DNA of 64,000 bases from a virus (IMGVR_UViG_3300020037_009719:1663-65662); one strand, 5' to 3'; shown: positions 5,921 to 45,836, counted from the stretch's first letter. Notes: a model not told the origin generated them from the letters alone. A program made the numbers and translations.

Positions 5921-8900
5921 ATGGAAAAGATTCATGTTTGCTCATCACCTAATTGTTCCCATTCTTCTCATAAAAATAGACCAATGGTCAACCCACATAT
6001 TCACAGTGGGTTTTCTTTATTAGACGGGGCAGCTAAAACAAGTGATTATATAAAGTTAGCTAAAGAATATGGACATCCAGCTTTAGCTATAACAGATCAT
6101 GGTAACCCAGCTGGTTTGTATGACCATTATAAACAGGTTAAAGCTGCAGGTTTAAAACCTATCTTAGGGGAAGAGTTTTATTTAGCATTAGATATTACAG
6201 AAAGAGTTCCTAACAGATTAAGAGAACCTCATAAAAGAGATAAACATCAAACAGTTTTAATTCAAAATCAAGAAGGTTATAAAAACTTCTGTAAGTTAAC
6301 ATATTTGAGTTTTACAGAAGGTTATTATGCAAAACCTAGAATTGATTATGACATGTTGTTTCAATATGGAAATGGTTTAGTTATAACTTCTGGTTGTGCG
6401 GCTAGTATTTTCAATCAACTATTAAATTTAGGGAAAGAAACAGAAGCAGAAGAATGGTTTGTTAAATTTGTTAAACGATTTGGTGCTAATTTTTATGGAG
6501 AGATACAGTTTAATGAATTGTTAGACAAAGAAAAGTATGGTATGAATCAAAAACAAATGAATGATTTTATCATTAAAATGTCTAACAAGTATGATATACC
6601 TTTATTAATTGGTGGAGATACTCATTATGCTTATAAGGAAGATGCAAAATTGCAAGACGTGTTAATTGCAGCACAAAGACGTAAAGACGGGGTTGCAGAA
6701 GTAGAAGAGGATAATGAAGAAAAGAAAAAAGATTTTATTATTCATGCAAGACATTTATACTATCATCAATCAGAAGATTATTATAATTTCAACAAAGAGT
6801 TTGGTTACAATTATGATGAAGGTTTGATAACTCAAGCTTTAGATAATTCTATTAAGTTAGCTGATTCAATAAATTTTGAATTTGAAACAGGTAAAGTTAA
6901 CTTCCCTAAATTCAACACGAATGACCCTAAAAAAACTTCTCATCAATTATTAGAAGAGCATGCTTGGGCAGGTTTGATGCAAAAACTACAACTTAGAAGA
7001 GATAAAGGGGAAGAAATCTCTAATGATAAAATTACTGAATATGAAAAACGATTAGATTACGAATTAGAAGTAATTAAAGATAAACAATTTAGTGATTATT
7101 TTTTAATTGTAGAAGATTTATTGAAATGGGCACGTCAAGAAGGTATTGGTGTAGGTGTTGGTCGTGGTTCTTGTGGTGGTAGTTTATTAGCATACGCTTT
7201 AGATATTATTGCTCTTTCACCTGTTAAGTATGATTTATATTTCGAACGTTTTCTTAACCCACAAAGAGAAAGTGCTGTAGATATCGATTTAGATATTGAA
7301 AATGGTGGTAGGGAGAAAATTAGACATTACTTAGAAGATAAGTATGGTAAAGAATCTGTTTTAGGTGTAGTAACTTTCCATTTATATGGACCTAAATCAG
7401 CATTACAAGATGCATCAAGAGGGTTGAAGAGAGATACTTCTTTTGAGTCTACATTAATGAAAGAGGTTACAAAGTTACCTGACTTAGATGAACAAAAAGA
7501 TTTAGTAACATATTTCCAAAAAGTATATAAAACTTCAACTTCTGAAACAGTTTTAAAGTGGTGTGAAGACAATCAAGATACAATTCTTTACGCTAATAAA
7601 TTGTTAGGTCAACCTAAAAATCTAGGAACTCATGCTGGTGGAATTTTAATTGCCCCAGGGCCTGTTTATGATTATATCCCTGTTACTAGAGGAGGTGGTG
7701 AGGTTGTTACTGCATTTAAAGAAGCAGATGGTTCATCTAAAGATTTATCTGAACTAGGATTATTGAAGTTAGATGTTTTAGGTTTGAGAACATTAAACGT
7801 TATAAATAATTGCGTTAAAAAAATTAAAATAGATTTAGGTGTAGATTTAAAACAAGAAATATTAGACTTAGATTTGAGTAACCCTGAATTGTTTGAATTG
7901 ATTCAAAAAGGTAATTTGTATGGTTTATTTCAATTAGACGGAGGAGCTTCACCTTTGGTTAAGATGATTAAACCAAATCGATTTGAAGATATTGTAGCTA
8001 TTAACTCTTTAAATCGACCAGGTCCACTAGAAACATTTGGACCTGTTTATGCAAAGTGGAAAAGACATTATGAAGAAGGGAAACCAGAAAAGTGTAAAGA
8101 AGATGAAATTTACCCTAAACTAGACTTTATGTTGAAAGCAACAAAAGAAAGTTATGGTGCATTAATTTTCCAAGAACAATTTATGTTTATGGTCAAAGAT
8201 GCAGCAGGGTTTAATTTAGGTGAAGCAGATAATTTTAGAAGAGCTATTGCTTGGACTAAAGATCATCCTAAATATTATACAGTGAAAAAATACTTTGATA
8301 CATTAGAAACAAAAATGCTTGAAAAAGGTTATTCCCAAGCAGACGTTGATTATTTTGTTGATTATTGTAGAAAATTCATGGGTTATTCTTTTAATAAATC
8401 CCATGCTTTGTTCTATAGTTATACAGGTATGCAATGTGTTTACTTAAAAAAGTATTACCCTGCATATTTCTATGCTGAGTTAGCTAATGTAGAAAGTCAT
8501 GAAAAGATAAGAGAAATTGTAGTTGATGCAATAGCAAATGGAATTAATGTTTTAGCTCCTTCTGTTACTAAATCACAACATGGATTTTCAGTTGAAAATG
8601 AAAAAACTATCAGAATGGGTTTCAATGCTTTAAAAGGTTTTGGTGACAAGGCGTATGAAGAATTAGTAACCCTTAAAGTTAGTGATAGTAAAAACATTTA
8701 TGATATTTTAACTTTACCATTTAAAAAATTAAACGTATCTGCATTTCAATCTTTAATAGATGTAGGTGCATTCGATGAGTTTGGTGTTGAGAGAGAAAAG
8801 ATTGAAAGTATAAGAGCTTTATATAAAGACCCAAAAATAGAAAAATGGTTTACTCGTAAAAGAAAACCATTAGACTTAACAACTATGCCACCTTCTTTAT

Positions 8901-9379
8901 TAGATTTCCCTGAAGAAGTTGTTATGGGGTTAGCAGAAAAACATAAAGATGATCCGGATCATTGGAAAAAACTAATTCATGAATTAATTCCTTTCATTAA
9001 AGTTAAACCTCTTAAAGAAGAGGTTAAAAATAATCGTGAGGAAAACATATTAGGATTTAGTTTAAAACAGGTAAGTAGTTTAGCGGAGTTACTTACTTTA
9101 GCAGAAAAATACCCTACCTTAAACTTAAAATCTCTAAGTCTTCATAATAATGAATCAGATTTATGTTATTGGAGTTTGGTAAAAAGAACTGTTCTAAAAA
9201 CAAAAAGGGGAAAAGAATATTTAAACTTAGAAATATCTGACGGTAGTACCACAATAAAAGCTAAATGTTGGGATATGCTTGATTTGAAAAAAGGAAAAGC
9301 ATACGTAAGTAATTTGAAAAAAGATTTATACGGGTATACTATTATTAACAATGGTTTATTAACAGAGATAGATTTGTAA
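5921..9379 (+). CDS. dnaE: DNA polymerase III alpha subunit (DnaE-type, N-terminal PHP domain)
   Basis: 1152 aa. PHP motifs HIHSGFSLLDGA and ALAITDHGN. Central polymerase core with GDxHY-like 'LIGGDTHYAY'. C-terminal OB-like region. Alternative start at 5984 (MVNPHIHS). Confidence 0.85.
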   Translation: MEKIHVCSSPNCSHSSHKNRPMVNPHIHSGFSLLDGAAKTSDYIKLAKEYGHPALAITDHGNPAGLYDHYKQVKAAGLKPILGEEFYLALDITERVPNRLREPHKRDKHQTVLIQNQEGYKNFCKLTYLSFTEGYYAKPRIDYDMLFQYGNGLVITSGCAASIFNQLLNLGKETEAEEWFVKFVKRFGANFYGEIQFNELLDKEKYGMNQKQMNDFIIKMSNKYDIPLLIGGDTHYAYKEDAKLQDVLIAAQRRKDGVAEVEEDNEEKKKDFIIHARHLYYHQSEDYYNFNKEFGYNYDEGLITQALDNSIKLADSINFEFETGKVNFPKFNTNDPKKTSHQLLEEHAWAGLMQKLQLRRDKGEEISNDKITEYEKRLDYELEVIKDKQFSDYFLIVEDLLKWARQEGIGVGVGRGSCGGSLLAYALDIIALSPVKYDLYFERFLNPQRESAVDIDLDIENGGREKIRHYLEDKYGKESVLGVVTFHLYGPKSALQDASRGLKRDTSFESTLMKEVTKLPDLDEQKDLVTYFQKVYKTSTSETVLKWCEDNQDTILYANKLLGQPKNLGTHAGGILIAPGPVYDYIPVTRGGGEVVTAFKEADGSSKDLSELGLLKLDVLGLRTLNVINNCVKKIKIDLGVDLKQEILDLDLSNPELFELIQKGNLYGLFQLDGGASPLVKMIKPNRFEDIVAINSLNRPGPLETFGPVYAKWKRHYEEGKPEKCKEDEIYPKLDFMLKATKESYGALIFQEQFMFMVKDAAGFNLGEADNFRRAIAWTKDHPKYYTVKKYFDTLETKMLEKGYSQADVDYFVDYCRKFMGYSFNKSHALFYSYTGMQCVYLKKYYPAYFYAELANVESHEKIREIVVDAIANGINVLAPSVTKSQHGFSVENEKTIRMGFNALKGFGDKAYEELVTLKVSDSKNIYDILTLPFKKLNVSAFQSLIDVGAFDEFGVEREKIESIRALYKDPKIEKWFTRKRKPLDLTTMPPSLLDFPEEVVMGLAEKHKDDPDHWKKLIHELIPFIKVKPLKEEVKNNREENILGFSLKQVSSLAELLTLAEKYPTLNLKSLSLHNNESDLCYWSLVKRTVLKTKRGKEYLNLEISDGSTTIKAKCWDMLDLKKGKAYVSNLKKDLYGYTIINNGLLTEIDL

Positions 9380-29510: not shown

Positions 29511-30326
29511 ATGGAAACACTCATTGAAAGTAAAGTTAATCGATTTGTTGAAAAGTTAGAGTTAAAACGTTACTCTAAAAACACAAAAAATATATATCTT
29601 TCAAACTTTAAATCTTTTTTAAACTATTTTAAAGGAGATATAGATAATTTAAAAGATTCAGATATTTGTAATTATATTTTAACACAATCTAAAAACAAGT
29701 CGTACTCTTATCAAAATGTGTTAACAAATACTATTAAATTTTATTACGAAAAGGTAAATTATAGAAAAAGAAGGTTTTATAAAATAGAAAGACCTAAACA
29801 AGAAAGAAAGTTACCACAAGTGATTTCTAAAGAAGAAGTTTTAAAATCTATAGAGTTAATACCTAATTTAAAACATAAAGCAATAATTTCACTAGCTTTT
29901 TCTACTGGAATGAGAGTAAGTGAGATATGTAATTTGAAAATAGTAGATATTGATTCAAAGAGAATGATTTTAAGAATTTTAGATAGTAAAGGTAAAAAAG
30001 ATAGAATAGTTCCTTTATCTGAAAGTATACTAACTTTGTTGAGAAGTTATTGGCAAGAATATAAACCTAAATTTTATTTATTTGAATCCTATAAACCTGG
30101 GGTTAAATATTCGACAGCGAGTTGTAGACAAATATGGAATAAATATAAAATAAATAAGCAAAGTACTTTTCACACTCTTAGACATAGTTTTGCTACAACT
30201 ATGTTAGAAAATAAAACTGATATTAGGACAATTCAAAGACTTTTAGGTCATTCTAATTTGAAAACAACAGAAATATATACCCACGTTTCTACTGATTATT
30301 TGAAAACTTTAAAGTTACCTATATAA
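29511..30326 (+). CDS. tyrosine site-specific recombinase (integrase/XerC-D family)
   Basis: MRVSEI (Arg I), HTLRHSFAT (HxxR), LLGHS, IYTHV (catalytic Tyr). Confidence 0.8.
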   Translation: METLIESKVNRFVEKLELKRYSKNTKNIYLSNFKSFLNYFKGDIDNLKDSDICNYILTQSKNKSYSYQNVLTNTIKFYYEKVNYRKRRFYKIERPKQERKLPQVISKEEVLKSIELIPNLKHKAIISLAFSTGMRVSEICNLKIVDIDSKRMILRILDSKGKKDRIVPLSESILTLLRSYWQEYKPKFYLFESYKPGVKYSTASCRQIWNKYKINKQSTFHTLRHSFATTMLENKTDIRTIQRLLGHSNLKTTEIYTHVSTDYLKTLKLPI

Positions 30327-36110: not shown

Positions 36111-36396
36111 TAAGAAAAGTAACTAACCTAGTTAAACAAATAAATTAAATAAAAAGTTGGTTCTAAACAAATAAGTTTCCAAATTTAGGTCATATTTAAA
36201 AGATGTATTAACAGAATTAAGATTACTAACAGCAATTTTATTTTATTCGGAAAAAAAAAAGATAGTAATCTGTAATATAAAACAACAATGAAAAATATTA
36301 ATAAATATAACGGCAATTATTTTAGAGGGTTTAAAAACCTTTCTACCGCCAAGGTATTTGTTAATTAACAAAACATAAGTTGTTTTAACATTTAAA

Positions 36397-36428
36397 AACC
36401 TTGGTAGAAATATCAAGGTTTTTTTATT
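36397..36428 (+). terminator. hairpin plus T-tract immediately upstream of the tRNA cluster
   Basis: aaccttg-gtagaaatat-caaggtt then T7; a related half-copy (aaaaacctttctaccgccaagg) lies 60 nt upstream. Confidence 0.4.
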
Positions 36429-36433
36429 TTTAA

Positions 36434-36505
36434 TGCGTTCTTAGCTGAGGTGGTTTAGCATTTGGTTGAAGCCCAAAAGACACTGGTTCGACTCCAGTAG
36501 ATCGC
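36434..36505 (+). tRNA. tRNA-Phe (GAA)
   Basis: Manual cloverleaf: acceptor GCGTTCT/AGATCGC (1 mismatch), D GCTG/TAGC, anticodon stem TTTGG/CCAAA, loop TTGAAGC, T arm ACTGG-TTCGACT-CCAGT. Confidence 0.75.
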
Positions 36506-36511
36506 ACAATA

Positions 36512-36585
36512 TGATTCTGTAGCTCAGTTGAATAGAGCAATTGCCTTCTAAGCAATAGGTCAAAGGTTTGAATCCTTTCAGAATC
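36512..36585 (+). tRNA. tRNA-Arg (TCT)
   Basis: Acceptor GATTCTG/CAGAATC, D GCTC/GAGC, anticodon ATTGC-CTTCTAA-GCAAT, T AAAGG-TTTGAAT-CCTTT. Confidence 0.75.
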
Positions 36586-36597
36586 ACTTAAAATAAA

Positions 36598-36679
36598 TGC
36601 CGACGCGCTAACGTTGGAGGGTTAGGACAGTCTGTAAAACTGTTACATAAGTCTAGTAGGTTCGAATCCTATCGGCGGC
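36598..36679 (+). tRNA. tRNA-Tyr (GTA), class II with 12-nt variable arm
   Basis: Acceptor GCCGACG/CGGCGGC (1 mismatch), D CTAA/TTAG, anticodon ACAGT-CTGTAAA-ACTGT, T GTAGG-TTCGAAT-CCTAT. Confidence 0.7.
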
Positions 36680-36762
36680 ACTAGCAGAACACAACTGCTG
36701 AAACAAATAGGTGATTCAGTTATCGGTGAGCAAGTCTGAACTAAAACAAAATGTTGCTTAAT

Positions 36763-36839
36763 GGACATATAGCTCAGCTGGTAGTAGCAAATGATTGTTA
36801 ATCATTAGGTCGTAGGTTCGAACCCTACTATGTCCGCCA
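36763..36839 (+). tRNA. tRNA-Asn (GTT) with encoded CCA
   Basis: Acceptor GGACATA/TATGTCC, anticodon AATGA-TTGTTAA-TCATT, T GTAGG-TTCGAAC-CCTAC, then G-CCA. Confidence 0.75.
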
Positions 36840-36848
36840 AGTAAACAA

Positions 36849-36934
36849 GCGAGTGTCGCATAGAGCCCGATTGCACCTGACTTCCAATCAGGAAAGATAA
36901 AATCACAACGCAGGTTGAAATCCTGTCGCTCGCT
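36849..36934 (+). tRNA. aberrant tRNA-like gene (anticodon TCC, Gly?) with 17-nt AT-rich extra arm
   Basis: Acceptor GCGAGTG/CGCTCGC (G-U), anticodon CCTGA-CTTCCAA-TCAGG, T GCAGG-TTGAAAT-CCTGT, 3-bp D stem. Variable region AAAGATAAAATCACAAC is atypical for tRNA-Gly. Confidence 0.45.
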
Positions 36935-36978
36935 CTCAGCCAGTTGTTAAATCTGGTGAAAATTAAAACTTAACAAAC

Positions 36979-37051
36979 GCAAAAATAGCTCAATTGGTAG
37001 AGCGTTGCCTTGCCAAGGCAAAGGTTGTGAGTTCGAGACTCATTTTTTGCT
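36979..37051 (+). tRNA. tRNA-Gly (GCC)
   Basis: Acceptor GCAAAAA/TTTTTGC, D GCTC/GAGC, anticodon TTGCC-TTGCCAA-GGCAA, T GTGAG-TTCGAGA-CTCAT. Confidence 0.75.
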
Positions 37052-37052
37052 C

Positions 37053-37169
37053 TGTGATATAGCTCAGCTGGCAGAGCGGCCCCGTGTAAAGGGGAAGGTC
37101 GTGGAATAAGTGAAAACTTGTTGCTTCTATATACGTATAGAATTGGGTGTTCGAATCCCACTGTCACAA
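37053..37169 (+). tRNA. tRNA-like gene interrupted by ~44-nt palindrome-containing insertion in the T-arm region (pseudo-tRNA or intron-like)
   Basis: Acceptor TGTGATA/TGTCACA pairs perfectly; D GCTC-AGCTGGCA-GAGC; anticodon hairpin CCCC-GTGTAAA-GGGG. Removing aataag...gaattgggt (with a tatacgtata palindrome) restores T arm GTGGG-TTCGAAT-CCCAC. Confidence 0.45.
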
Positions 37170-37184
37170 CTAAAAAATAAAATT

Positions 37185-37379
37185 ATGTGGTCTGAAGATC
37201 AAGTGAAAGAATTCGTTCACAAGAGAGTTAAAGAGTTGTCAACAAACCCTTCTGCAATTGCTTTAGGGTCTTATTACAAAGGTTGTGATTGGCGCTTTGA
37301 TAAGTTAAGAGCTTTTTGTGAACAGGAAGTAAAAAATTATACGCAAGAACTATTAAGAAAGAAACAACAAAAAACATGA
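37185..37379 (+). CDS. hypothetical small protein
   Basis: In-frame ATG just after the tRNA cluster; the track start 37110 lies inside the tRNA-like gene. Confidence 0.4.
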   Translation: MWSEDQVKEFVHKRVKELSTNPSAIALGSYYKGCDWRFDKLRAFCEQEVKNYTQELLRKKQQKT

Positions 37380-37597
37380 GTAACGTTTATAGTAAATTAG
37401 ATAGGTTAAATCAATTGGAAGATGAAAATATAAAAAGTTTTGTTAAATTAGCAAGACGTGTTTTAAAAACTAAAAATCCAAGTAGAGATGTGCCTGAATA
37501 TTTTCAGAAAGATAAAAAAGTAAAAAAAGAAATTAAAAAAATGAGAACAAAAGCAATAATAAAGAAATCTAAGAAACCTGACGAACAGGGCACTTAA
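37376..37597 (+). CDS. hypothetical basic protein
   Basis: 73 aa, Lys-rich. Confidence 0.4.
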   Translation: MSNVYSKLDRLNQLEDENIKSFVKLARRVLKTKNPSRDVPEYFQKDKKVKKEIKKMRTKAIIKKSKKPDEQGT

Positions 37598-37622
37598 CTA
37601 TTGTTTAAATTCTAAACGAATA

Positions 37623-37658
37623 ACCCAAGTGTCTTAGTTGATAACTTGGGTTTTCTTA
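37623..37658 (+). terminator. rho-independent terminator
   Basis: aacccaagt-gtcttagttgata-acttgggtt 9-bp stem followed by a T-run. Confidence 0.65.
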
Positions 37659-37659
37659 T

Positions 37660-37700
37660 GCTTCTATGGCGAGAAGGGCGCGCAATATACTTTTTATCAA
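37660..37700 (+). other. candidate 5' tRNA fragment partner (speculative)
   Basis: GCTTCTA can pair (one G-U) with TAGGAGC of the 3' tRNA half at 38402-38408; the GCGAGAAGGGCGC hairpin is D-arm-like. Confidence 0.2.
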
Positions 37701-37759
37701 AGGGAATATTTCTAACTTGAACTATATTTAATAGAAAACAACTTAAACGTAGTTCGATA

Positions 37760-38371
37760 ATGAAATGTCAAAGTGTAAAATGTGAAAAAGAGCATGATGG
37801 TAAATATGGGAGCGGGAAATATTGCTCAAGACAATGTGCTAATAGTAGAACTTGGTCAGAGGAAGATAAGTTAAAAAAATCCAATTCTGCTAAAAATAGC
37901 AAAAAAGTTTTAACTCGAAGTTGTGAATGTTTATATAAATTAAAAGCTGCAGCGTTAAAAAAAAGTGAAAAAGCAAAGGAGGAAATTTTAATAGCGAATT
38001 GGGAAGATCTATCTTTTGAACGATTAAGAAAAAGAGTTATTTGGGAACAAAACGAATGTTGTGCAACTTGTGGGATAAGTGAGTGGAGAGGAAAAAAAAT
38101 TTCACTAGAATTAGAACATAAAGATGGAAACCATTCGAATAACGCAAAGGAAAACTTAGAAGCATTATGTCCAAACTGTCATAGTTTAACAACTACTTGG
38201 AGAGGGAGAAATAAATCAAGAAAAGTAAAAAAAATCTCAGATGAAGATCTATTAATATCTTTAATTGAAAACAATTGGAATATGAGACAAGCTTTACTTA
38301 ATCTTAATTTAGCTGCAAAAGGAAGTAATTATAAAAGATGTCATAGGGTAAAAAGAATGATAGATTCTTAA
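37760..38371 (+). CDS. HNH homing endonuclease
   Basis: CATCGISEW...LELEHKDGNHSNN...LCPNCHSL HNH motif; an N-terminal Cys cluster. Confidence 0.75.
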   Translation: MKCQSVKCEKEHDGKYGSGKYCSRQCANSRTWSEEDKLKKSNSAKNSKKVLTRSCECLYKLKAAALKKSEKAKEEILIANWEDLSFERLRKRVIWEQNECCATCGISEWRGKKISLELEHKDGNHSNNAKENLEALCPNCHSLTTTWRGRNKSRKVKKISDEDLLISLIENNWNMRQALLNLNLAAKGSNYKRCHRVKRMIDS

Positions 38372-38379
38372 TAAAACAC

Positions 38380-38409
38380 ATGGGTGATGGTTCGATTCCA
38401 TCTAGGAGC
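38380..38409 (+). pseudogene. 3' tRNA half (T arm plus acceptor strand) with no contiguous 5' half
   Basis: GATGG-TTCGATT-CCATC then TAGGAGC-A; it begins 9 nt after the HNH stop codon. Confidence 0.5.
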
Positions 38410-38489
38410 ACTCAGGTTTGAACTTTGATTATTTGAGCATTGACAAGGTCAATTAGACCTAACAAGATAGCTGAGTAAATAATCATTAT

Positions 38490-38562
38490 GACCTCGTAGC
38501 TCAATTGGCGGAGCACTATACTTTTAATATAGGGGTTATGGGTTCAAGTCCCATCGGGGTCA
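38490..38562 (+). tRNA. tRNA-Lys (TTT)
   Basis: Acceptor GACCTCG/CGGGGTC (G-U), D GCTC/GAGC, anticodon CTATA-CTTTTAA-TATAG, T ATGGG-TTCAAGT-CCCAT. Confidence 0.75.
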
Positions 38563-38616
38563 CAATTATTTTTATTTCTTACCTAGGGTTATATTCCTAT
38601 AACTTATGGGTTTTTA

Positions 38617-38642
38617 GTTTACTTATTAAGTGCTATCTTTAG
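38617..38642 (+). promoter_or_regulatory. GTTTAC-N11-TATCTTTAG promoter-like motif
   Basis: Exact consensus; 20 nt upstream of the ATG at 38662. Confidence 0.5.
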
Positions 38643-38661
38643 TTATAAGAAAATTGAAAAC

Positions 38662-38928
38662 ATGTCGAGTTCAGAACAACTTATCACCGCTTTGAAGAGT
38701 AATAAAATTTTAGTTAAAACTCATTTTGAGTTTGAATCAGAATTTTTGTTTTTAGACCATGGTGTTATAGAAAAAAGAGGTTGGAATACAGCATATGGTG
38801 TCGTTGGTGACAGATTAGCTGACATTGTTCTACATCCTGAAAATTGGCGTATACATGAAAGAACTTTAACTGATGGTTATCCTTACCCATGGTCAGCAAC
38901 TTACAAAACCCCAAAGTCACAAGCTTAG
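38662..38928 (+). CDS. hypothetical protein
   Basis: 88-aa ORF. Confidence 0.45.
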   Translation: MSSSEQLITALKSNKILVKTHFEFESEFLFLDHGVIEKRGWNTAYGVVGDRLADIVLHPENWRIHERTLTDGYPYPWSATYKTPKSQA

Positions 38929-38936
38929 TCTTTATA

Positions 38937-39269
38937 ATGCAAATTCGAGTCTTCAAAGATGAAGACCGCACTAGGGCTTTACTTGATTTTTTATTTAGTA
39001 AAGGGGTAACATGGAACTCTGGTTCAAAAGCTTATCATTACGAAGCTGAATATTATAATTTGAAAATAGCGTGGTTACCATTACAGCAATGGAGAACAAC
39101 TTTATCTTTTAGTGAGAGTGCTTCAAGTTATTGTGAAAGTATAGAGTTTTCACTTCAAACTCCAGAAGTTACTTTTGAAATTATAGATAAATTTCTTGAA
39201 GATAATTATAACATAATTTGGTTACAAACTATAATTCAACAAACTGACGAAGAACTAACACAATCTTAA
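38937..39269 (+). CDS. hypothetical protein
   Basis: In-frame ATG right after the upstream stop (the track start overlaps). Confidence 0.4.
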   Translation: MQIRVFKDEDRTRALLDFLFSKGVTWNSGSKAYHYEAEYYNLKIAWLPLQQWRTTLSFSESASSYCESIEFSLQTPEVTFEIIDKFLEDNYNIIWLQTIIQQTDEELTQS

Positions 39270-39270
39270 T

Positions 39271-40497
39271 ATGAAATCACAACTTTTTATCCCTAAAAAA
39301 TGTAAAGTAGGTTTTAACCTACGCCAAGATACTTACACTGGTAAGTTAGGTTATATCATTATGCATGATGGTAAAGTATGGAGAAAAGAAAATTCTTGGG
39401 AAGGGTGGAGAGAAAAAGAAGCTACTGAAGAATTAAAAAATAAATATTTAGAAAATTACGAGTTACAATATCATAAAAGAAACCCTGAGCATTACCCTGT
39501 TATTACTTCATTTGAAGAATTACCTCGTTGGTGTAAAGGTAAAATTGCTGAAGGTGTAGTTCCGATAGAATTTGATAATACTCCTACAGAAGGTTTTGTT
39601 TTAAATAGAAAAGCTGGTGGAGAGAATTGGGGTTGGAATCCAAGACAAACTTATTGTAGAGTTTATGACCCAAGAGGTTTTGAGTTTGAAATCACAATTC
39701 AAAATTTACTTTTCATTTTACAAGAAACAAACTCTATTAAAGGAAAAGGACTTGAAGGTCAATTCGTTTATTCTTGGGATAAAAAAGATCTTGTTTTATT
39801 ACCAGTAGGTTGTCAAGAGTATAAATCATCTTCTGGATTTACTTCTTTGCAAGATAAAAAAATTGAATTGAAAACCCTTATTGAAGGAGCAGTTTACAAA
39901 ACAAAAAAAGAAGAATCAGTTATTTATTTAGGTAAATTTGATTGGTGGGAATGGAAACGTATAACGACAAACACATCAACTAAAGGTTTATTTTCTCATC
40001 ACTTCTCTGAAACTTTCTCAACTAGAGATAAGAAAAAGAAATTAATTTTCTTCGACTTAAAAGCAAACACATTTGTTTCTTACGATAAAGTAGACAAGTT
40101 AGCAGAATGTATTAACGATACACCAGTTTCTAATTATGCTGAATTAGTAAGTAATTACTTGAAGAGCAAACATGGAATGGTTATTGAAGAGTTAGTTGTA
40201 GAACCTTTGAAAGAACCTTTGAAAATAGGTTCTTATAATCAAGTTGCTTTAAAGAAAGGTGAAGACTTGTTTTGGGGTTATTTACATACTCATTATGGTC
40301 TAAATTCAAGTGGGTGTTACCAAGCTTCCTTATCAACTAAAGTTATCTTAGAAAAAAATAAAATTATACAAAGAGAAAACTATAACGAAATTGTTACTGT
40401 TCCTAAAGATGAATTAGAAACTTCAGCTGGTAAGTTTGTTACAATTGTTGCAGTAAACAGTCAAGGTGAAAGATACATTTTCAACGAATTACGTTAA
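39271..40497 (+). CDS. hypothetical protein, paralog A
   Basis: The N-terminal ~180 aa (KVGFNLRQDTYTGKLGYIIMHDGKVWRKENSWEGWR...) are clearly homologous to the ORF at 41046. Confidence 0.55.
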   Translation: MKSQLFIPKKCKVGFNLRQDTYTGKLGYIIMHDGKVWRKENSWEGWREKEATEELKNKYLENYELQYHKRNPEHYPVITSFEELPRWCKGKIAEGVVPIEFDNTPTEGFVLNRKAGGENWGWNPRQTYCRVYDPRGFEFEITIQNLLFILQETNSIKGKGLEGQFVYSWDKKDLVLLPVGCQEYKSSSGFTSLQDKKIELKTLIEGAVYKTKKEESVIYLGKFDWWEWKRITTNTSTKGLFSHHFSETFSTRDKKKKLIFFDLKANTFVSYDKVDKLAECINDTPVSNYAELVSNYLKSKHGMVIEELVVEPLKEPLKIGSYNQVALKKGEDLFWGYLHTHYGLNSSGCYQASLSTKVILEKNKIIQRENYNEIVTVPKDELETSAGKFVTIVAVNSQGERYIFNELR

Positions 40498-40500
40498 GAC

Positions 40501-41040
40501 ATGTTAAGTAAGACAAAAAACTGGTGGCAAGAGTGCTTGAAGGACTCAGAAAAATTAGAAATGTGGCTTGTTTCATTATACAATAATGAAAAAGATGCTG
40601 AAGAAAGATTTCGAGACTTTGCAGCAAAATATTGTCAAGAAGATGAAGAAGCTTTGATAACGTTTCTTACATTAGCAGAACAAGAACACAAACATGCACA
40701 GTTAGTAGAATTGATTCTAATCAATAGAGGTTTAACTAAGTATAAAAAATCTTCTAAAGACGGTAGATATTGGCGAAATACATTACCTTGCATCAATGAC
40801 AAACAAACTGCAGCAGCAATTGGAGCATTTGCAGAAAGTTTATCTTTAAAACGTATGAGAGTTATCATCAAAGACCCTAATACTCCAAAAGATTTAGTTG
40901 CTCTTTTTGAAGTAATAGAACCAGAAGAAGCTTATCATGCTAAAGCTTTAACTGCAATAGCTACTAAACATGGTATGAGTAAAGTGAAAGATTGTCACGA
41001 TAAAGGTTTAGAAGAACTTGGATTAAAAATAAAAAAATAA
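40501..41040 (+). CDS. ferritin-like diiron-carboxylate-type protein (two ExxH motifs)
   Basis: LAEQEHKHA and EPEEAYHAKA motifs, helical composition. Confidence 0.35.
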   Translation: MLSKTKNWWQECLKDSEKLEMWLVSLYNNEKDAEERFRDFAAKYCQEDEEALITFLTLAEQEHKHAQLVELILINRGLTKYKKSSKDGRYWRNTLPCINDKQTAAAIGAFAESLSLKRMRVIIKDPNTPKDLVALFEVIEPEEAYHAKALTAIATKHGMSKVKDCHDKGLEELGLKIKK

Positions 41041-41045
41041 AAAAT

Positions 41046-42281
41046 ATGAACACAAAATTGTACATCCCACAACTTATTAAAGTTGGTTTTCAAAAAAGAG
41101 ACGACACTTATACAGGTAAGTTAGGTTATGTTATCTATCGTGATGATAAAAAGGTTTGGAGGAAGGAAAAATCATGGAATGGTTGGAGAGATGAAAAGGT
41201 AAAACCCGTTGAGTTAGAAAACGTTCCTCATTCTGGATTTCATCTTAACAAAGGTGTAGAAAGATATGGATATTGGGGAAGTGGTCGAAGTATGTGTCGT
41301 GTTTATGATGACCGTGGATTTGAATTCGAAATTACAATTGATAACCTTATGTTTATTTTAATGGGTTCAGATTGTTCAAAGAGAGAATTAGCTGGTGAAT
41401 TTGTTTACTCATGGAATGGGATGGAACTTGTTTTATTACCAGTAAACTCTCAAGAATATGAAGAGTCTAAAAAGTTTACTTCTTTACAAGGTGGAAAAGT
41501 AAATACGAAAGACCTTATTGAAGGTGCGACATATGTTACAAAAAAGGGAAGTAAATTAATTTACTTAGGTAAGTTTAATGTAAATTCTTTTAAGCAAATA
41601 TACTCTTCTCATCATAGATCAAGTAAAAAGATTGCAAGTTTTGCAATGAAATATGTTTTCCACACAGCAGAAAGAGCTGAAAGTGATTATGAACTTGAAA
41701 GTTATATATTTGACCATACTTTCCAATATAAAGATACAAAGTTTATTTTCTTTAATGATTTAGACAAGTTAGCTAATTGTATTGTAGAAGAACCTACAGA
41801 GAATTATTCTAAATATGTAGATGAATTTTTAAAAACATCATGGGGTTCTAAAATTACAAATGTAGAAACTCAAACAATTACAGGTGAAGAAATATTACAT
41901 TCTTCAAAAAGTAGCAAACCGTATTATCATTCTTCAAGAGAAGAAAGTGGGTATAACCTTAAAGATAGAAAAGATTTTATAGGGGAAGCGTTTGAATATG
42001 TTAGTGAAAATACATATAGACATATTCAAATTCATGTTCTCAAAGTATTTGTCAAAGATGATGTAAGTTATTCTTACGGTAAGATGAAACAGACAGGTTA
42101 CGCATTAACTTCAACAAAAATTGTTAATTTTAATGGAACTGAAATTAACGTCAAAAACAATTCAAAGAAAGATGACAAAGTGTACACAGAAAAGGAAATA
42201 AATTCTTTGTTGTTGCATAAATTAAATCTATCTTTAGAATGCAATTCAAAACACCCATTAAGTTTTATAAATAAATTTTAA
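41046..42281 (+). CDS. hypothetical protein, paralog B
   Basis: KVGFQKRDDTYTGKLGYVIYRDDKKVWRKEKSWNGWR... homologous to the ORF at 39271. Confidence 0.55.
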   Translation: MNTKLYIPQLIKVGFQKRDDTYTGKLGYVIYRDDKKVWRKEKSWNGWRDEKVKPVELENVPHSGFHLNKGVERYGYWGSGRSMCRVYDDRGFEFEITIDNLMFILMGSDCSKRELAGEFVYSWNGMELVLLPVNSQEYEESKKFTSLQGGKVNTKDLIEGATYVTKKGSKLIYLGKFNVNSFKQIYSSHHRSSKKIASFAMKYVFHTAERAESDYELESYIFDHTFQYKDTKFIFFNDLDKLANCIVEEPTENYSKYVDEFLKTSWGSKITNVETQTITGEEILHSSKSSKPYYHSSREESGYNLKDRKDFIGEAFEYVSENTYRHIQIHVLKVFVKDDVSYSYGKMKQTGYALTSTKIVNFNGTEINVKNNSKKDDKVYTEKEINSLLLHKLNLSLECNSKHPLSFINKF

Positions 42282-42295
42282 AAACAAATAAAAAC

Positions 42296-42730
42296 ATGGC
42301 AAACGATAAACAAAAATTAGTTGATGAGCTTTTTAACTTATTAGAAAAGAAAAAAGCTGAAATTAATCAAGCTGAAAAACCAAACTGGGTGACGAATTGT
42401 TCATTCCCTTTGAGTAAAAACAACAGCGACAGATTAAATATTCAAGTAGTCTCTGAACCAAATCAACTTGTAGAAGCTTTATCTTCTTTACTTGAAAAGC
42501 AAGCTTCTTTTGAAAAAGCAAACACTATTTTAGGTGAAAAAGCAACATTCAAATGGGGTGGGTTCACCGTAGAAGAATGGACAGTTGATTTCAAAACTCG
42601 TCTTGGTAAAATTAACATTGCTAACAAGAAAAAAGAATTAGCTGATTTAGAAGCACGTTTAAGTAAACACATTTCTCAAGATAAAAAAGATGAAATGGAT
42701 CTTGCTGATATTGCTAAAAAACTTTCATAA
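42296..42730 (+). CDS. hypothetical coiled-coil protein
   Basis: 144-aa ORF. Confidence 0.45.
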   Translation: MANDKQKLVDELFNLLEKKKAEINQAEKPNWVTNCSFPLSKNNSDRLNIQVVSEPNQLVEALSSLLEKQASFEKANTILGEKATFKWGGFTVEEWTVDFKTRLGKINIANKKKELADLEARLSKHISQDKKDEMDLADIAKKLS

Positions 42731-42933
42731 TGAAAATCGTCTTACCTGCAAACTTCATTGAAGTTTTAAGTTTTTTACCAGAAACTGGTATGGGTTATCA
42801 AATTGTTGACATCACTATGAAAGATGGAACCGTTTTAACGAAAACAGTTTTTAATAGTTCTTTAGTTGAAGTTGATTCAGCAGATGAAATTGATTTAGGT
42901 AAAATTCAAAGTGTAACACTTCATAAAAAATAA
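42730..42933 (+). CDS. hypothetical protein
   Basis: 67-aa ORF, ATGA-coupled. Confidence 0.35.
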   Translation: MKIVLPANFIEVLSFLPETGMGYQIVDITMKDGTVLTKTVFNSSLVEVDSADEIDLGKIQSVTLHKK

Positions 42934-42937
42934 ACAA

Positions 42938-43396
42938 ATGAAAAGAAATTCAACTACTGTAATAATTTTTCTACTATTTTTAGTATTAGGCTTGTTTTTA
43001 GCAAGTTGTGGTAACGGGGTCCGTGAGGAAAGTAAAGTAGGTAAACTTTTAATTGGTGAACACCCTTTGAATGAGTTACATTTTGAAAACTTAAATAAGA
43101 ATGAAGGGGAAAGTGACATTAAACCTAATAAACCAACTTACTTCATGTTTTCAAACACATCGATAACATTTAATGTTACCCTTAATGATAGTAATATTGT
43201 AACTATGAATTTACCTATTTCTAGAGTAAGGTTTCGATATGATGAAATGATAACTCAACCTTATGTGAAGTTCAAATGGGTTAAAGGGGATACAGATTGG
43301 AGTGTTGCAGATCTTGAAAGTCATATTCTTTATATAGTTCTTTTTGTAAATAAGGAAGATGTTATTTACAACCCTCAAGTAGTACAAGTAAGATGA
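42938..43396 (+). CDS. putative lipoprotein
   Basis: Signal peptide with LASCGNG lipobox. Confidence 0.5.
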   Translation: MKRNSTTVIIFLLFLVLGLFLASCGNGVREESKVGKLLIGEHPLNELHFENLNKNEGESDIKPNKPTYFMFSNTSITFNVTLNDSNIVTMNLPISRVRFRYDEMITQPYVKFKWVKGDTDWSVADLESHILYIVLFVNKEDVIYNPQVVQVR

Positions 43397-43743
43397 AAGC
43401 TTTCGACCTTGTAGTTGCTCTTATCTCTTCAGAACCAACAGTTCGTTTGGGAATTGTGCAAACTCCTTCCTTTAAAGCAAATCATGTTTACAGAGTTCAG
43501 GGAGTAAAACACAATATTGTTTACATAGAGCGCGATGAAAGAGGGAGTGGAACAAATGGTTGGTCAGAGCAAAATTTTAGATTACTTACAGATCAAGAGT
43601 ATCTTGATTTATGTAGTTATTATGGTATAGCGTTTTCACTTCCTTGTGAGTTCCCGCCAAACCCTATAACTTTAGTAATAAACGAAATAAACAACGAATT
43701 GAATAATGAAAATATTGATTTCTCGACCAGATTTCAATTTTAG
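43393..43743 (+). CDS. hypothetical protein (INxELN family; paralog of 43774)
   Basis: GWSEQNFRLLT...LPCEFPPNPITLVINEINNELN parallels the next ORF. Confidence 0.5.
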   Translation: MKAFDLVVALISSEPTVRLGIVQTPSFKANHVYRVQGVKHNIVYIERDERGSGTNGWSEQNFRLLTDQEYLDLCSYYGIAFSLPCEFPPNPITLVINEINNELNNENIDFSTRFQF

Positions 43744-43773
43744 AAACATTGCAACCCTTAAGTAAATTTTTTT

Positions 43774-44070
43774 ATGAAAAAAGAAAACCACTTTGCTTCA
43801 GGGATGTTAGTAGTTTGCACAAAAAGTAGTACTGGTGGTTTTCGTGAAGGGCATATTTACAAAGTTGTCGAGGACTATGGGGACTCTCTTACTGTAGAAT
43901 GTGACTCAGAAGGGGATGCAAACGGTTGGAATAAAGAAAATTTTAGACACATCACAATGGATGAGTTAGAATGTTTAATACTAAGTTGTAAAAAGGTTCC
44001 ATGTGAATTACCTGGTAATAGATTAACTGTAATTATAAATAATATTAATCGCGAATTAAATCAATATTAA
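43774..44070 (+). CDS. hypothetical protein (INxELN family; paralog of 43393)
   Basis: GWNKENFRHIT...VPCELPGNRLTVIINNINRELNQY. Confidence 0.5.
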   Translation: MKKENHFASGMLVVCTKSSTGGFREGHIYKVVEDYGDSLTVECDSEGDANGWNKENFRHITMDELECLILSCKKVPCELPGNRLTVIINNINRELNQY

Positions 44071-44071
44071 A

Positions 44072-45655
44072 ATGTATACAACAAACGAAAAAGGAGCTAA
44101 AACCTTAGCTACAAGTGGGAAAAACAGTTTAGATTACTTTGCAAACATTGGAACTTATCGCAATCGTAATGTAAAACAAGTAGCTGCAGATATGGCTAAA
44201 GCTTGGAAAGAAGATCCTATGTTAGCTTTATCAATATTGTTTTATGCTCGTATGATTACTCGTAAAACAAAAGGAGCGTTTGTTTCTGATAAAGTACAAA
44301 AAGGTCAAGGTATTAAAGATGAATTTATAAAAGGTTTACAATACCTTGAAGCAAATCACCCTTCAGTATTAGAGAAAAATTTATGGATTGTTCCTCTAGT
44401 AGGATCTTGGAAAGATTTATGGTATGACTCTGCATGCACAGGGCACTATCACTATATTATGCCTGAAAAAGTTTACGAGTTAATTAGACAAAGTATTCTT
44501 ACAGATGAATACAATGGAGCTTTAATTGCAAAATACTTACCTCGTATTCGTTCAGCAAAACAAATAAAGAATGACAGACATAAACGTATGAATAAATGGG
44601 CGTTAGGTCTATGTTCATACTTAGGTTGGAATCAAAAACATTATCGTCAGTTTAAAGCAGATCCAGCTAAAATTGCTCATTCATGGCAAAGAAAAATGAG
44701 TGCTAAAAATTGGGATGAAATTGACTTTAGCAAAATCCCAGGTCGTGCTTTATTTCAAATGGTAAACAACACAGGGAAAGACGGAAAAACTTTATTACAA
44801 AGACATGGTTTAGAAGCTAAGTATGAAGCTTGGTTAGATACTCAACCTACAGCTAAATTTACAGGTTATGTTTACGAGTTGTTTTTACAAACAAAGCAAC
44901 ATAAAATATCTGCAGTGAAAAGAAAAACTTTAGACAAGCAATTTGATGGTTTATTGGCTTTAGCTAAAGCAGACGGTGTTGAAGGATTGAAAGGAAACGT
45001 TTGGTGTGCATTAGATACATCTAGTTCAATGGAATGTGGAGCAGTTGGTGAAAACGGGGTTACAGCGTATGATGTGTGTATATCTTTAGGACTTTACTTT
45101 TCATCTTTAAACGAAGGTGCATTTAAAGATCATGTTGTAATGTTTGATGAAAAATCTAAAGTTTTAAAATTATCAGGAGGTTTTGTTGAAAAAGCAAAAC
45201 AAATAAGAATGGCATCAACAGCATGGGGTAGCACTAATTTTCAATCTGTAGTTGATGAAATTGTACGTGTACGAAAAGCTAACCCTGCAATTCCAATTTC
45301 AGAATTCCCAGAAACTTTATTAGTAGTTTCAGATATGCAATTTGATAAAGCTGGAAAAAACACAAAAACTAATTACGAAGTTATGATGAAAAAATTATCT
45401 AATGTTGGATTAGGTAATATAAAAGTAATCTGGTGGCAAGTAAGTGGTAGAAGTGAAAAGAACGTTCCAAGCAAGTTTGATGATGACGGAGTGACACTAA
45501 TTTCTGGTTTTGATCCTGCTATTATTTCCTTAATTTTAGGAGGTGAGAAGAGCAAAGTGGATGAAGTTACTGGTAAAACAAGAGCTTTAACACCATATGA
45601 AAATATGATGAAAGCTTTAGACCAAGAGGTTTTAAAACAATTAAAGATTGATTAA
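44072..45655 (+). CDS. rsr: Ro60/Rsr-like protein (TROVE domain plus C-terminal vWA with MIDAS)
   Basis: KEDPMLALSILFY resembles Ro60 KQEPMLFALAIC. vWA MIDAS ALDTSSSM, STAWGSTNF, LVVSDMQFD parallel Ro60 AVDVSASM / AGGTDCS / IVFTDNETF. Length 527 aa. Confidence 0.65.
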   Translation: MYTTNEKGAKTLATSGKNSLDYFANIGTYRNRNVKQVAADMAKAWKEDPMLALSILFYARMITRKTKGAFVSDKVQKGQGIKDEFIKGLQYLEANHPSVLEKNLWIVPLVGSWKDLWYDSACTGHYHYIMPEKVYELIRQSILTDEYNGALIAKYLPRIRSAKQIKNDRHKRMNKWALGLCSYLGWNQKHYRQFKADPAKIAHSWQRKMSAKNWDEIDFSKIPGRALFQMVNNTGKDGKTLLQRHGLEAKYEAWLDTQPTAKFTGYVYELFLQTKQHKISAVKRKTLDKQFDGLLALAKADGVEGLKGNVWCALDTSSSMECGAVGENGVTAYDVCISLGLYFSSLNEGAFKDHVVMFDEKSKVLKLSGGFVEKAKQIRMASTAWGSTNFQSVVDEIVRVRKANPAIPISEFPETLLVVSDMQFDKAGKNTKTNYEVMMKKLSNVGLGNIKVIWWQVSGRSEKNVPSKFDDDGVTLISGFDPAIISLILGGEKSKVDEVTGKTRALTPYENMMKALDQEVLKQLKID

Positions 45656-45759
45656 ACTTAATTTAATCTAAGTTCTTTACTAATTTATATTTATTGACAT
45701 TATAACTTTCTGAAAAGAATCCCTATAAAAGCAGATACAGTACGGGGACATGCGGTTAT

Positions 45760-45836
45760 TCTTATTAAAAACGCTAACAGCAATTTTTTAACTTCAATCT
45801 ACAGAAAACAAAAAACAGCGTTTTGTATTATTTAGT
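45760..45836 (+). ncRNA. candidate structured RNA (Y-RNA-like?) downstream of rsr
   Basis: tattaaaaacgct ... agcgttttgtatta forms an imperfect ~12-bp bulged stem around a ~40-nt loop. Followed by hairpin gacttgg-N13-ccaagtc and a terminator hairpin. Confidence 0.25.

Follow-up and report, generated by a model that had tools for sequence, protein, structure and literature searches.

A free-standing HNH homing-endonuclease cassette has very probably been mis-inserted, between canonical positions 36 and 37, into a redundant tRNA-Lys gene in the window (the whole 64,000-nt stretch of viral DNA that was analysed), within the tRNA cluster of an uncultured, AT-rich phage. The insertion is an ordinary mobile-gene accident, met here in an unusually clear state. 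The features concerned are listed below.

36435-38563, plus strand: tRNA gene cluster (ARAGORN, confirmed by Rfam).
37622..37659, plus strand: terminator-like hairpin, read from the sequence; it follows a 73-aa ORF and abuts the 5' end of the tRNA.
37660..37694, plus strand: 5' fragment of tRNA-Lys(UUU) copy 1; 35/35 identical to L001:664-698, L102 and L103.
37695..38374, plus strand: homing-endonuclease cassette insert, 680 bp; absent from L001, L102 and L103.
37695..37759, plus strand: leader of the cassette, 65 nt; aligns with the leaders of free-standing homologues.
37760..38371, plus strand: HNH endonuclease ORF, 203 aa; phrog_14736 'HNH endonuclease', E=2.5e-25.
38375..38410, plus strand: 3' fragment of tRNA-Lys(UUU) copy 1; 34/36 identical to L001:699-734.
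38490..38563, plus strand: tRNA-Lys(UUU) copy 2, intact paralogue (ARAGORN; Rfam tRNA 66.3 bits); present in L001 too.

The tRNA genes called by ARAGORN in the cluster are Phe, Arg(TCT), Tyr, Asn, Gly(TCC), Gly(GCC) and Lys(TTT), and interspersed among them are two small ORFs and the 203-codon ORF (37760-38371). The intact copy 2 of tRNA-Lys(UUU) lies 79 nt downstream of the split copy 1, and the two have ATACTTTTAATAT in common. The terminator-like hairpin ahead of copy 1 is composed of a stem, AACCCAAGT / ACTTGGGTT, with a loop of 13 nt, and is followed by TTTCTTAT. It was missed by a consensus scan because its loop is longer than 8 nt, but is kept in two relatives of the window (L001 and L002), and a similar hairpin stands ahead of tRNA-Lys in L094, a locus encoding an HNH homologue. 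Two further tRNA genes of the cluster have odd forms. tRNA-Gly(TCC) (36849-36935, plus strand) is 87 nt long with an unpaired variable region of 17 nt, uncommon among glycine tRNAs, and its counterpart in L002 measures 88 nt. A second tRNA-Tyr(GTA)-like gene of 117 nt (37055-37170, plus strand) has a T arm with an insertion of 43-51 nt, running GTGG(AATAAG...AATTGGGT)GTTCGAATCCCAC with the insertion in brackets. This gene scores 35.2 bits with the Rfam tRNA model and is detected by ARAGORN only at lowered stringency. Its L001 copy is identical, and that of L002, a 72% relative, differs by 2 nt (39.9 bits), one of these changes converting an acceptor-stem G.U to A-U. Either the gene is an unusual tRNA that has been conserved, or a previous insertion left its scar here.

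A preliminary description of this region had reported the 3' half of a tRNA behind the HNH gene, made up of a T arm, the acceptor strand TAGGAGC and a discriminator A, and all of these are present: GATGG at 38386-38390, TTCGATT, CCATC at 38398-38402, TAGGAGC at 38403-38409 and the discriminator at 38410. A custom T-arm scan of 36300-38800 found no other T arm outside a complete tRNA. The half was said to begin nine nt after the HNH stop codon; tRNA-derived sequence in fact restarts 3 nt past the stop, at 38375, with A37 and A38, followed by the 3' strand of the anticodon stem and the variable region GGGT, and it is 14 nt past the stop that the T arm begins. As its partner the same description had put forward GCTTCTA (37660-37666), which can pair with the acceptor strand and has a D-arm-like hairpin alongside. 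About 16 of the 16384 heptamers pair with that strand, giving about 0.7 expected per 750 nt; the 7-nt match is by itself near chance, and relatives were therefore needed to settle the 5' half.

These were reached through the 408-aa neighbour protein (39271-40497), which has a 91%-identical homologue on L001, an 8.1-kb Logan contig that is co-linear with the window from 36996 on and is without the HNH ORF. At L001:664-735 ARAGORN identifies an intact tRNA-Lys(TTT), which comprises 71 nt through the discriminator (GCTTCTATGGCGAGAAGGGCGCGCAATATACTTTTAATATATGGGTGATGGTTCGATTCCATCTAGGAGCA; Rfam tRNA 52.8 bits), and the identical 71 nt recur in L102 and L103, HNH-less contigs from other samples. The comparison with relatives lacking the HNH gene, proposed at the outset, thus yields an uninterrupted gene, as expected of a tRNA destroyed by homing-endonuclease insertion. 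The proposed 5' half is real, as the relatives carry an identical tRNA start, and the 3' half is not a stand-alone relic devoid of a 5' partner. The acceptor strand and D arm of the 5' half had been correctly recognized, but it extends further than was described, through the 5' strand of the anticodon stem and the loop up to and including the anticodon TTT (canonical position 36). As judged from these alignments, 37660-37694 and 38375-38410 are two parts of one tRNA-Lys(UUU) gene, and copy 1 is presumably a split pseudogene consisting of two dead halves. The 3' fragment departs from the intact allele by T39C (38377) and T41C (38379); over the 111 nt on the left side of the insert and the 52 nt on its right side, nothing else differs from L001. 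As lone changes in flanks that are ~99% identical close to the junction, they can be tied to the insertion event itself, which is equally well described as 685 bp in place of the 5 nt AATAT.

Presence and absence of the HNH gene are polymorphic. Besides the window, at least 17 contigs from JGI, ENA, NCBI and Logan encode the identical HNH protein, and L001, L102 and L103 are without it. The seven HNH-carrying loci that were read are identical over 1041 nt (928 nt in the shorter L009), and the junctions are identical in further HNH-carrying loci. The left flanks of HNH-less and HNH-carrying alleles are 98.4-99.4% identical (5/699, 37/2264 and 2/345 differences). The interrupted allele is far commoner than the intact one in the sampled contigs, an excess that is consistent with drive and equally with a benefit to the phage. 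Divergence from L001 was also seen to be asymmetric, at ~0.7% on the left (36996-37694) and rising to ~7-9% on the right (38411-45800); the position of the nuclease gene seems to coincide with a limit of genetic exchange. Three other searches were unproductive: blastn of 36300-39300 against INPHARED phages gave tRNA-sized and HNH-sized patches only and no relatives, a search of IMG/VR for related loci with the 408-aa neighbour protein gave no match, and exact-pattern scans of viral and metagenome contig collections for the 5' and 3' halves found none, although JGI contigs with both exist.

Alignment with the intact allele places the boundaries of the insert directly after T36 (37694). Its 680 bp are accounted for by the 65-nt leader, the 203-codon ORF and a second TAA, so that it ends in TAATAA, and its GC content is 29.4% vs 30.6% for the window. 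From about 37705 the leader reads TTGAAC TATATTTAA .. AACTTAAA .. GTTCGATA ATG. The protein has an N-terminal Cys-rich, zinc-ribbon-like region, a core of the form LELEHKDGNHSNN...LCPNCH and a conserved C-terminal domain. Its match to the Pfam HNH family is weak (E=0.007, below the cut-off), and the HNH alignment, used as a profile against PDB, matched nothing at E<=0.01. In the alignment of 23 homologues the core reads LELEHKDGNHxNN...LCPNCH (in shorter form LELEHKDGN..N..LCPNCH), with H120, N128, N139 and H141 invariant, and the C-terminus is conserved to the last residues. Homologues number 1560 proteins at E<=1e-10, and tblastn matches include HNH genes in T-even, T5-like and jumbo phages. 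Just ahead of the HNH start (37750-37762), and in the leaders of L092, L094 and L097, there is a conserved (A/G)GTTCGA(TA)ATG, which resembles the tRNA T-loop motif GGTTCGA. This could be a translation signal or the remnant of an older T-loop insertion.

Where does such a cassette normally reside? In 80 IMG/VR loci encoding HNH relatives, tRNAs were sought within 2.5 kb and found in 79, a count made without a random-locus control. Where gene and tRNA share a strand, the HNH ORF most often starts 50-90 nt past a complete tRNA; roughly one locus in three has it ending <30 nt before the next tRNA or overlapping that tRNA by ~10 nt. An interrupted, intron-type tRNA spanning the HNH ORF was found in none of the 80. 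The closest homologues, P0122, P0123 and P0124 (55-61% identity) and P0211 (50%), are each encoded 53-76 nt downstream of a complete tRNA-Lys(TTT), and in three of these four loci another tRNA-Lys follows the HNH gene. The leaders of L092 and L094 align with 37705-37759 of the window, as TTGAAC(C)TATATTTAA..AACTTAAA..GTTCGA..ATG, and those of L097 and L096 more weakly; the L092 cassette also terminates in TAATAA, and L094 has the tRNA order of the window (Phe, Arg, Tyr, Asn ... Gly ... Lys-HNH-Lys). Since leader and ORF are free-standing after tRNA-Lys in these homologues, the mobile unit is the leader plus the ORF. The normal home of the cassette is, on this comparison, the spacer after tRNA-Lys(UUU), and the cassette of the window evidently lies ~36 bp further upstream, inside the gene. 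A donor with a near-identical cassette was not found, the best HNH homologue being 61% identical. In the Escherichia phage BP32 (L011, 2962-3570) a homologue annotated 'F-TflIV' heads a T-even tRNA cluster, 6 nt before tRNA-Leu, at the place where T4 has tRNA-Gln; tRNA halves were sought around this gene and none were found.

Insertion into the anticodon loop is not the only nuclease-linked rearrangement of these genes. L002, a 245-kb contig from the 72%-identical relative, and L003, which shares its arrangement, have lost all of tRNA-Lys copy 1 beyond its first 31 nt, which end with C32, so that the breakpoint is 4 nt from that of the window and in the same loop. The relic is fused directly to a complete foreign tRNA-Lys(TTT) (8402-8476), itself followed by a DUF559-type nuclease ORF (8537-9268; Pfam E=8.9e-11). 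This block (8372-9268) stands where the window has the remainder of copy 1, the spacer and copy 2, and homology to the window picks up just past the 3' end of copy 2. The L002 break is a second, independent nuclease-linked event in the same tRNA loop. L014 has an orphan tRNA 3' half at 2398-2432 (CGGAA AGGTT ACGGG TTCGAGG CCCGT GGGGCGC A), immediately after the TAA of a homologous HNH ORF and beside three tRNA-Lys genes, and no 5' partner for it occurs anywhere on the locus. Taken together, the L002 and L014 cases mark the anticodon-loop region of tRNA-Lys as a recurrent breakpoint beside nuclease genes. A further nuclease gene of this cluster in L002 is a 218-aa endonuclease-like ORF abutting tRNA-Asn (6964-7620; phrog_15137 E=2e-14, weak Pfam Phage_endo_I), which is missing from the window, where the Tyr-Asn spacer measures 81 nt.

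A precedent for the likely course of events is T4 SegB, the gene for which is embedded in a tRNA cluster and missing from close relatives (PMC2330249). SegB cuts inside tRNA genes of a segB-less phage, and its gene is inherited preferentially with flanking tRNA genes (PMC2330249). By analogy with SegB we infer both the target site of the HNH enzyme and the loss of copy 1 function. During co-infection the enzyme would cut DNA in or near the tRNA-Lys genes of cassette-less phages, and a diverged donor would serve as the template for repair of the break, through recombination at short homologies and not through clean homing. Such a repair could have put the cassette at the break inside the gene, bringing in T39C and T41C. 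The insertion would destroy the enzyme's target and so confer self-immunity, leaving copy 1 as a split pseudogene; copy 2 would then carry lysine decoding, and with this intact tRNA-Lys(UUU) nearby the loss of copy 1 would be tolerable. The HNH gene may owe its expression to the tRNA-cluster transcript or to its own leader.

A bolder proposal goes beyond this: that the insertion point is the very cut site of this HNH subfamily (the DNA of the tRNA-Lys(UUU) anticodon stem-loop), that the subfamily is a dedicated driver of phage tRNA-Lys exchange, and that the halves form a 'tRNA scaffold' that releases and stabilizes the mRNA through RNase P and 3' processing. In that full form it is speculative and rather unlikely. 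Less likely still is a narrower alternative, which is compatible with mis-insertion of the cassette: the origin was accidental, but the tRNA halves are now in use, folding round the insert so that tRNA processing frees, stabilizes or tunes the HNH message. RNase P and 3' processing would cut that message from the cluster transcript, its ends lying in a tRNA-like helix. The state of the halves suits such a role, as all seven acceptor pairs (7/7) and both the T and D arms are intact, the only changes being in the anticodon stem beside the insert, and the interrupted allele is sequence-identical in all contigs read, from many samples. Processing of a tRNA-cluster transcript has also been proposed to control the expression of segB and of T5 F-Tfl genes (PMC2330249). 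Against this, the contigs are too similar to reveal purifying selection on the halves, homologous cassettes function without flanking halves, and L014 retains a 3' half only.

More doubtful is an intron, one of the two readings in the preliminary description. In this case the 680 nt would be a self-splicing group I (or other) intron at 36/37 of a functional tRNA-Lys, with its ribozyme largely overlapping the HNH coding sequence. The position lends itself to this reading, since the insert shares with tRNA group I introns a place in the anticodon loop right after a U, and 36/37 is a known bacterial site. One report lists such introns in tRNA-Leu (34/35), tRNA-fMet (33/34), tRNA-Arg (36/37) and, in Patescibacteria, at 35/36 (PMC13011429); it also has most tRNA group I introns without an endonuclease gene, and some of those at 36/37 as missed by Rfam RF00028 (PMC13011429). 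A small hairpin, CTTTTT-ATC-AAAGGG, is possible at the 5' junction, but its partner for the U that precedes the junction is A rather than G. ARAGORN in intron mode gives an interrupted tRNA over 37660-38411, and the program still calls the product of precise excision tRNA-Lys; the spliced form is therefore not obviously dead, if an excision mechanism existed. The intron-mode call as such, a 'tRNA-Phe(aaa)' with a 657-nt intron, was a forced fit and was rejected, because it has to take a mismatched anticodon stem and a long variable arm from within the ORF and is contradicted by the intact allele, whose identity (Lys, TTT) and boundaries are different.

The content of the insert argues strongly against an intron. 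A group I/II covariance-model search had been suggested, and it returned no Rfam match at E<=10, either over 2.5 kb or over 791 nt with laxer filters. Non-coding sequence in the insert comes to 68 nt (65 + 3) and not to the ~140 nt first estimated, and a ribozyme core needs roughly 200 nt or more; as conservation of the HNH protein reaches its final residues throughout the family, a ribozyme of ~200 nt would have no space. At its 3' end the insert reads ...CTTAATAA (GATTCTTAATAA, 38363-38374) with no G within 11 nt of the junction, the nearest upstream one lying 11 nt inside the ORF, and so lacks the terminal G of a group I intron. The 3' exon has two stem-breaking changes that are missing from the uninterrupted allele: in the joined exons T39C and T41C create two A.C mismatches in a 5-bp, all-A/U anticodon stem, and ligation would not restore a canonical intron-less tRNA. 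The anticodon helix is lost in the predicted fold of the joined exons, although the minimum free energy fold is non-cloverleaf for the intact and spliced forms alike and is therefore weakly informative. Finally, in 79/80 related loci and in the four closest homologues the leader and ORF stand free, with complete tRNAs on either side. On these features the insert is not an intron.

The remaining possibility, which can safely be set aside, is that the layout arose as a chimera in assembly, or that the 3' half duplicates the end of a host tRNA in the manner of an att site and is unrelated to the 5' piece. Attachment sites of temperate elements often include a tRNA gene's 3' end, and Pfam places an integrase-family ORF at 29511-30326 of the window, but the junctions are identical in all HNH-carrying contigs read, which come from separate JGI, ENA, NCBI and Logan assemblies, and the two pieces are contiguous in one phage tRNA, with no duplication, in the three HNH-less contigs, which together refute both versions.

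Mis-insertion of a free-standing cassette can be set beside several known systems. The window's HNH protein belongs to the same family as the F-Tfl-like HNH enzymes: by tblastn its residues 82-197 are 41% identical to genes of T-even phages, among them one with the annotation 'H-N-H endonuclease F-TflIV', and T5-like Salmonella phages match too. These phages are without a match to its N-terminal zinc-ribbon-like part (residues 1-80). T5 F-Tfl ORFs lie in the tRNA cluster (PMC2330249). Like the F-Tfl-like genes, the window's gene is located within a phage tRNA cluster or at its margin, outside any intron or intein, has the catalytic motif and is polymorphic in its presence. F-Tfl-like genes, however, lie between tRNA genes, as do the closest homologues of the window's protein, whereas the window's cassette is inside one and splits it. 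The gene for SegB is likewise free-standing, and its product has the mode of action proposed here for the HNH enzyme, but SegB has a GIY-YIG and not an HNH fold, recognizes a T-loop motif, and is encoded in an intergenic position in which no tRNA is interrupted. tRNA group I introns differ from the window's insert in having a ribozyme, a terminal G and exons that restore a canonical stem. In 'fractured genes', a homing-endonuclease gene reportedly lies between the halves of a split host gene, whose protein products are said to be rejoined by split inteins. The likeness is that a free-standing endonuclease gene parts the two halves of one gene; unlike those cases, the tRNA halves of the window show no evident means of rejoining. 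A partial literature search found no description of a free-standing endonuclease gene dividing a tRNA gene of a phage. The HNH gene of the window is thus best regarded as acting in the manner of SegB and F-Tfl and as F-Tfl-like by sequence, with its intragenic site as the difference, and that insertion site appears unusual.

A split tRNA-Lys is in itself an expected kind of event and of modest interest. What gives it wider meaning is the set of three allelic states: an intact tRNA-Lys pair, a copy split by the HNH cassette, and a truncated copy joined to a foreign tRNA-Lys and a DUF559 nuclease. Together they provide a clean natural example of homing-endonuclease genes remodelling phage tRNA clusters. 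For annotation they carry a warning, that an orphan tRNA half beside a nuclease gene is no evidence for an intron. They also offer a testable guess at the target of the HNH enzyme, the tRNA-Lys anticodon region, and draw attention to an HNH family of roughly 205 aa tied almost exclusively to tRNA clusters in hundreds of uncultured phages. Phage tRNA-Lys variants defeat defence nucleases directed at the anticodon stem, such as PARIS AriB, and can be counter-defence determinants (PMC11464382), and SegB-type nucleases are reported to amplify phage tRNA-Lys counter-defence loci (PMC13096335). With tRNA-Lys genes in such a counter-defence role, nucleases that shuffle or knock out their copies could affect host range.
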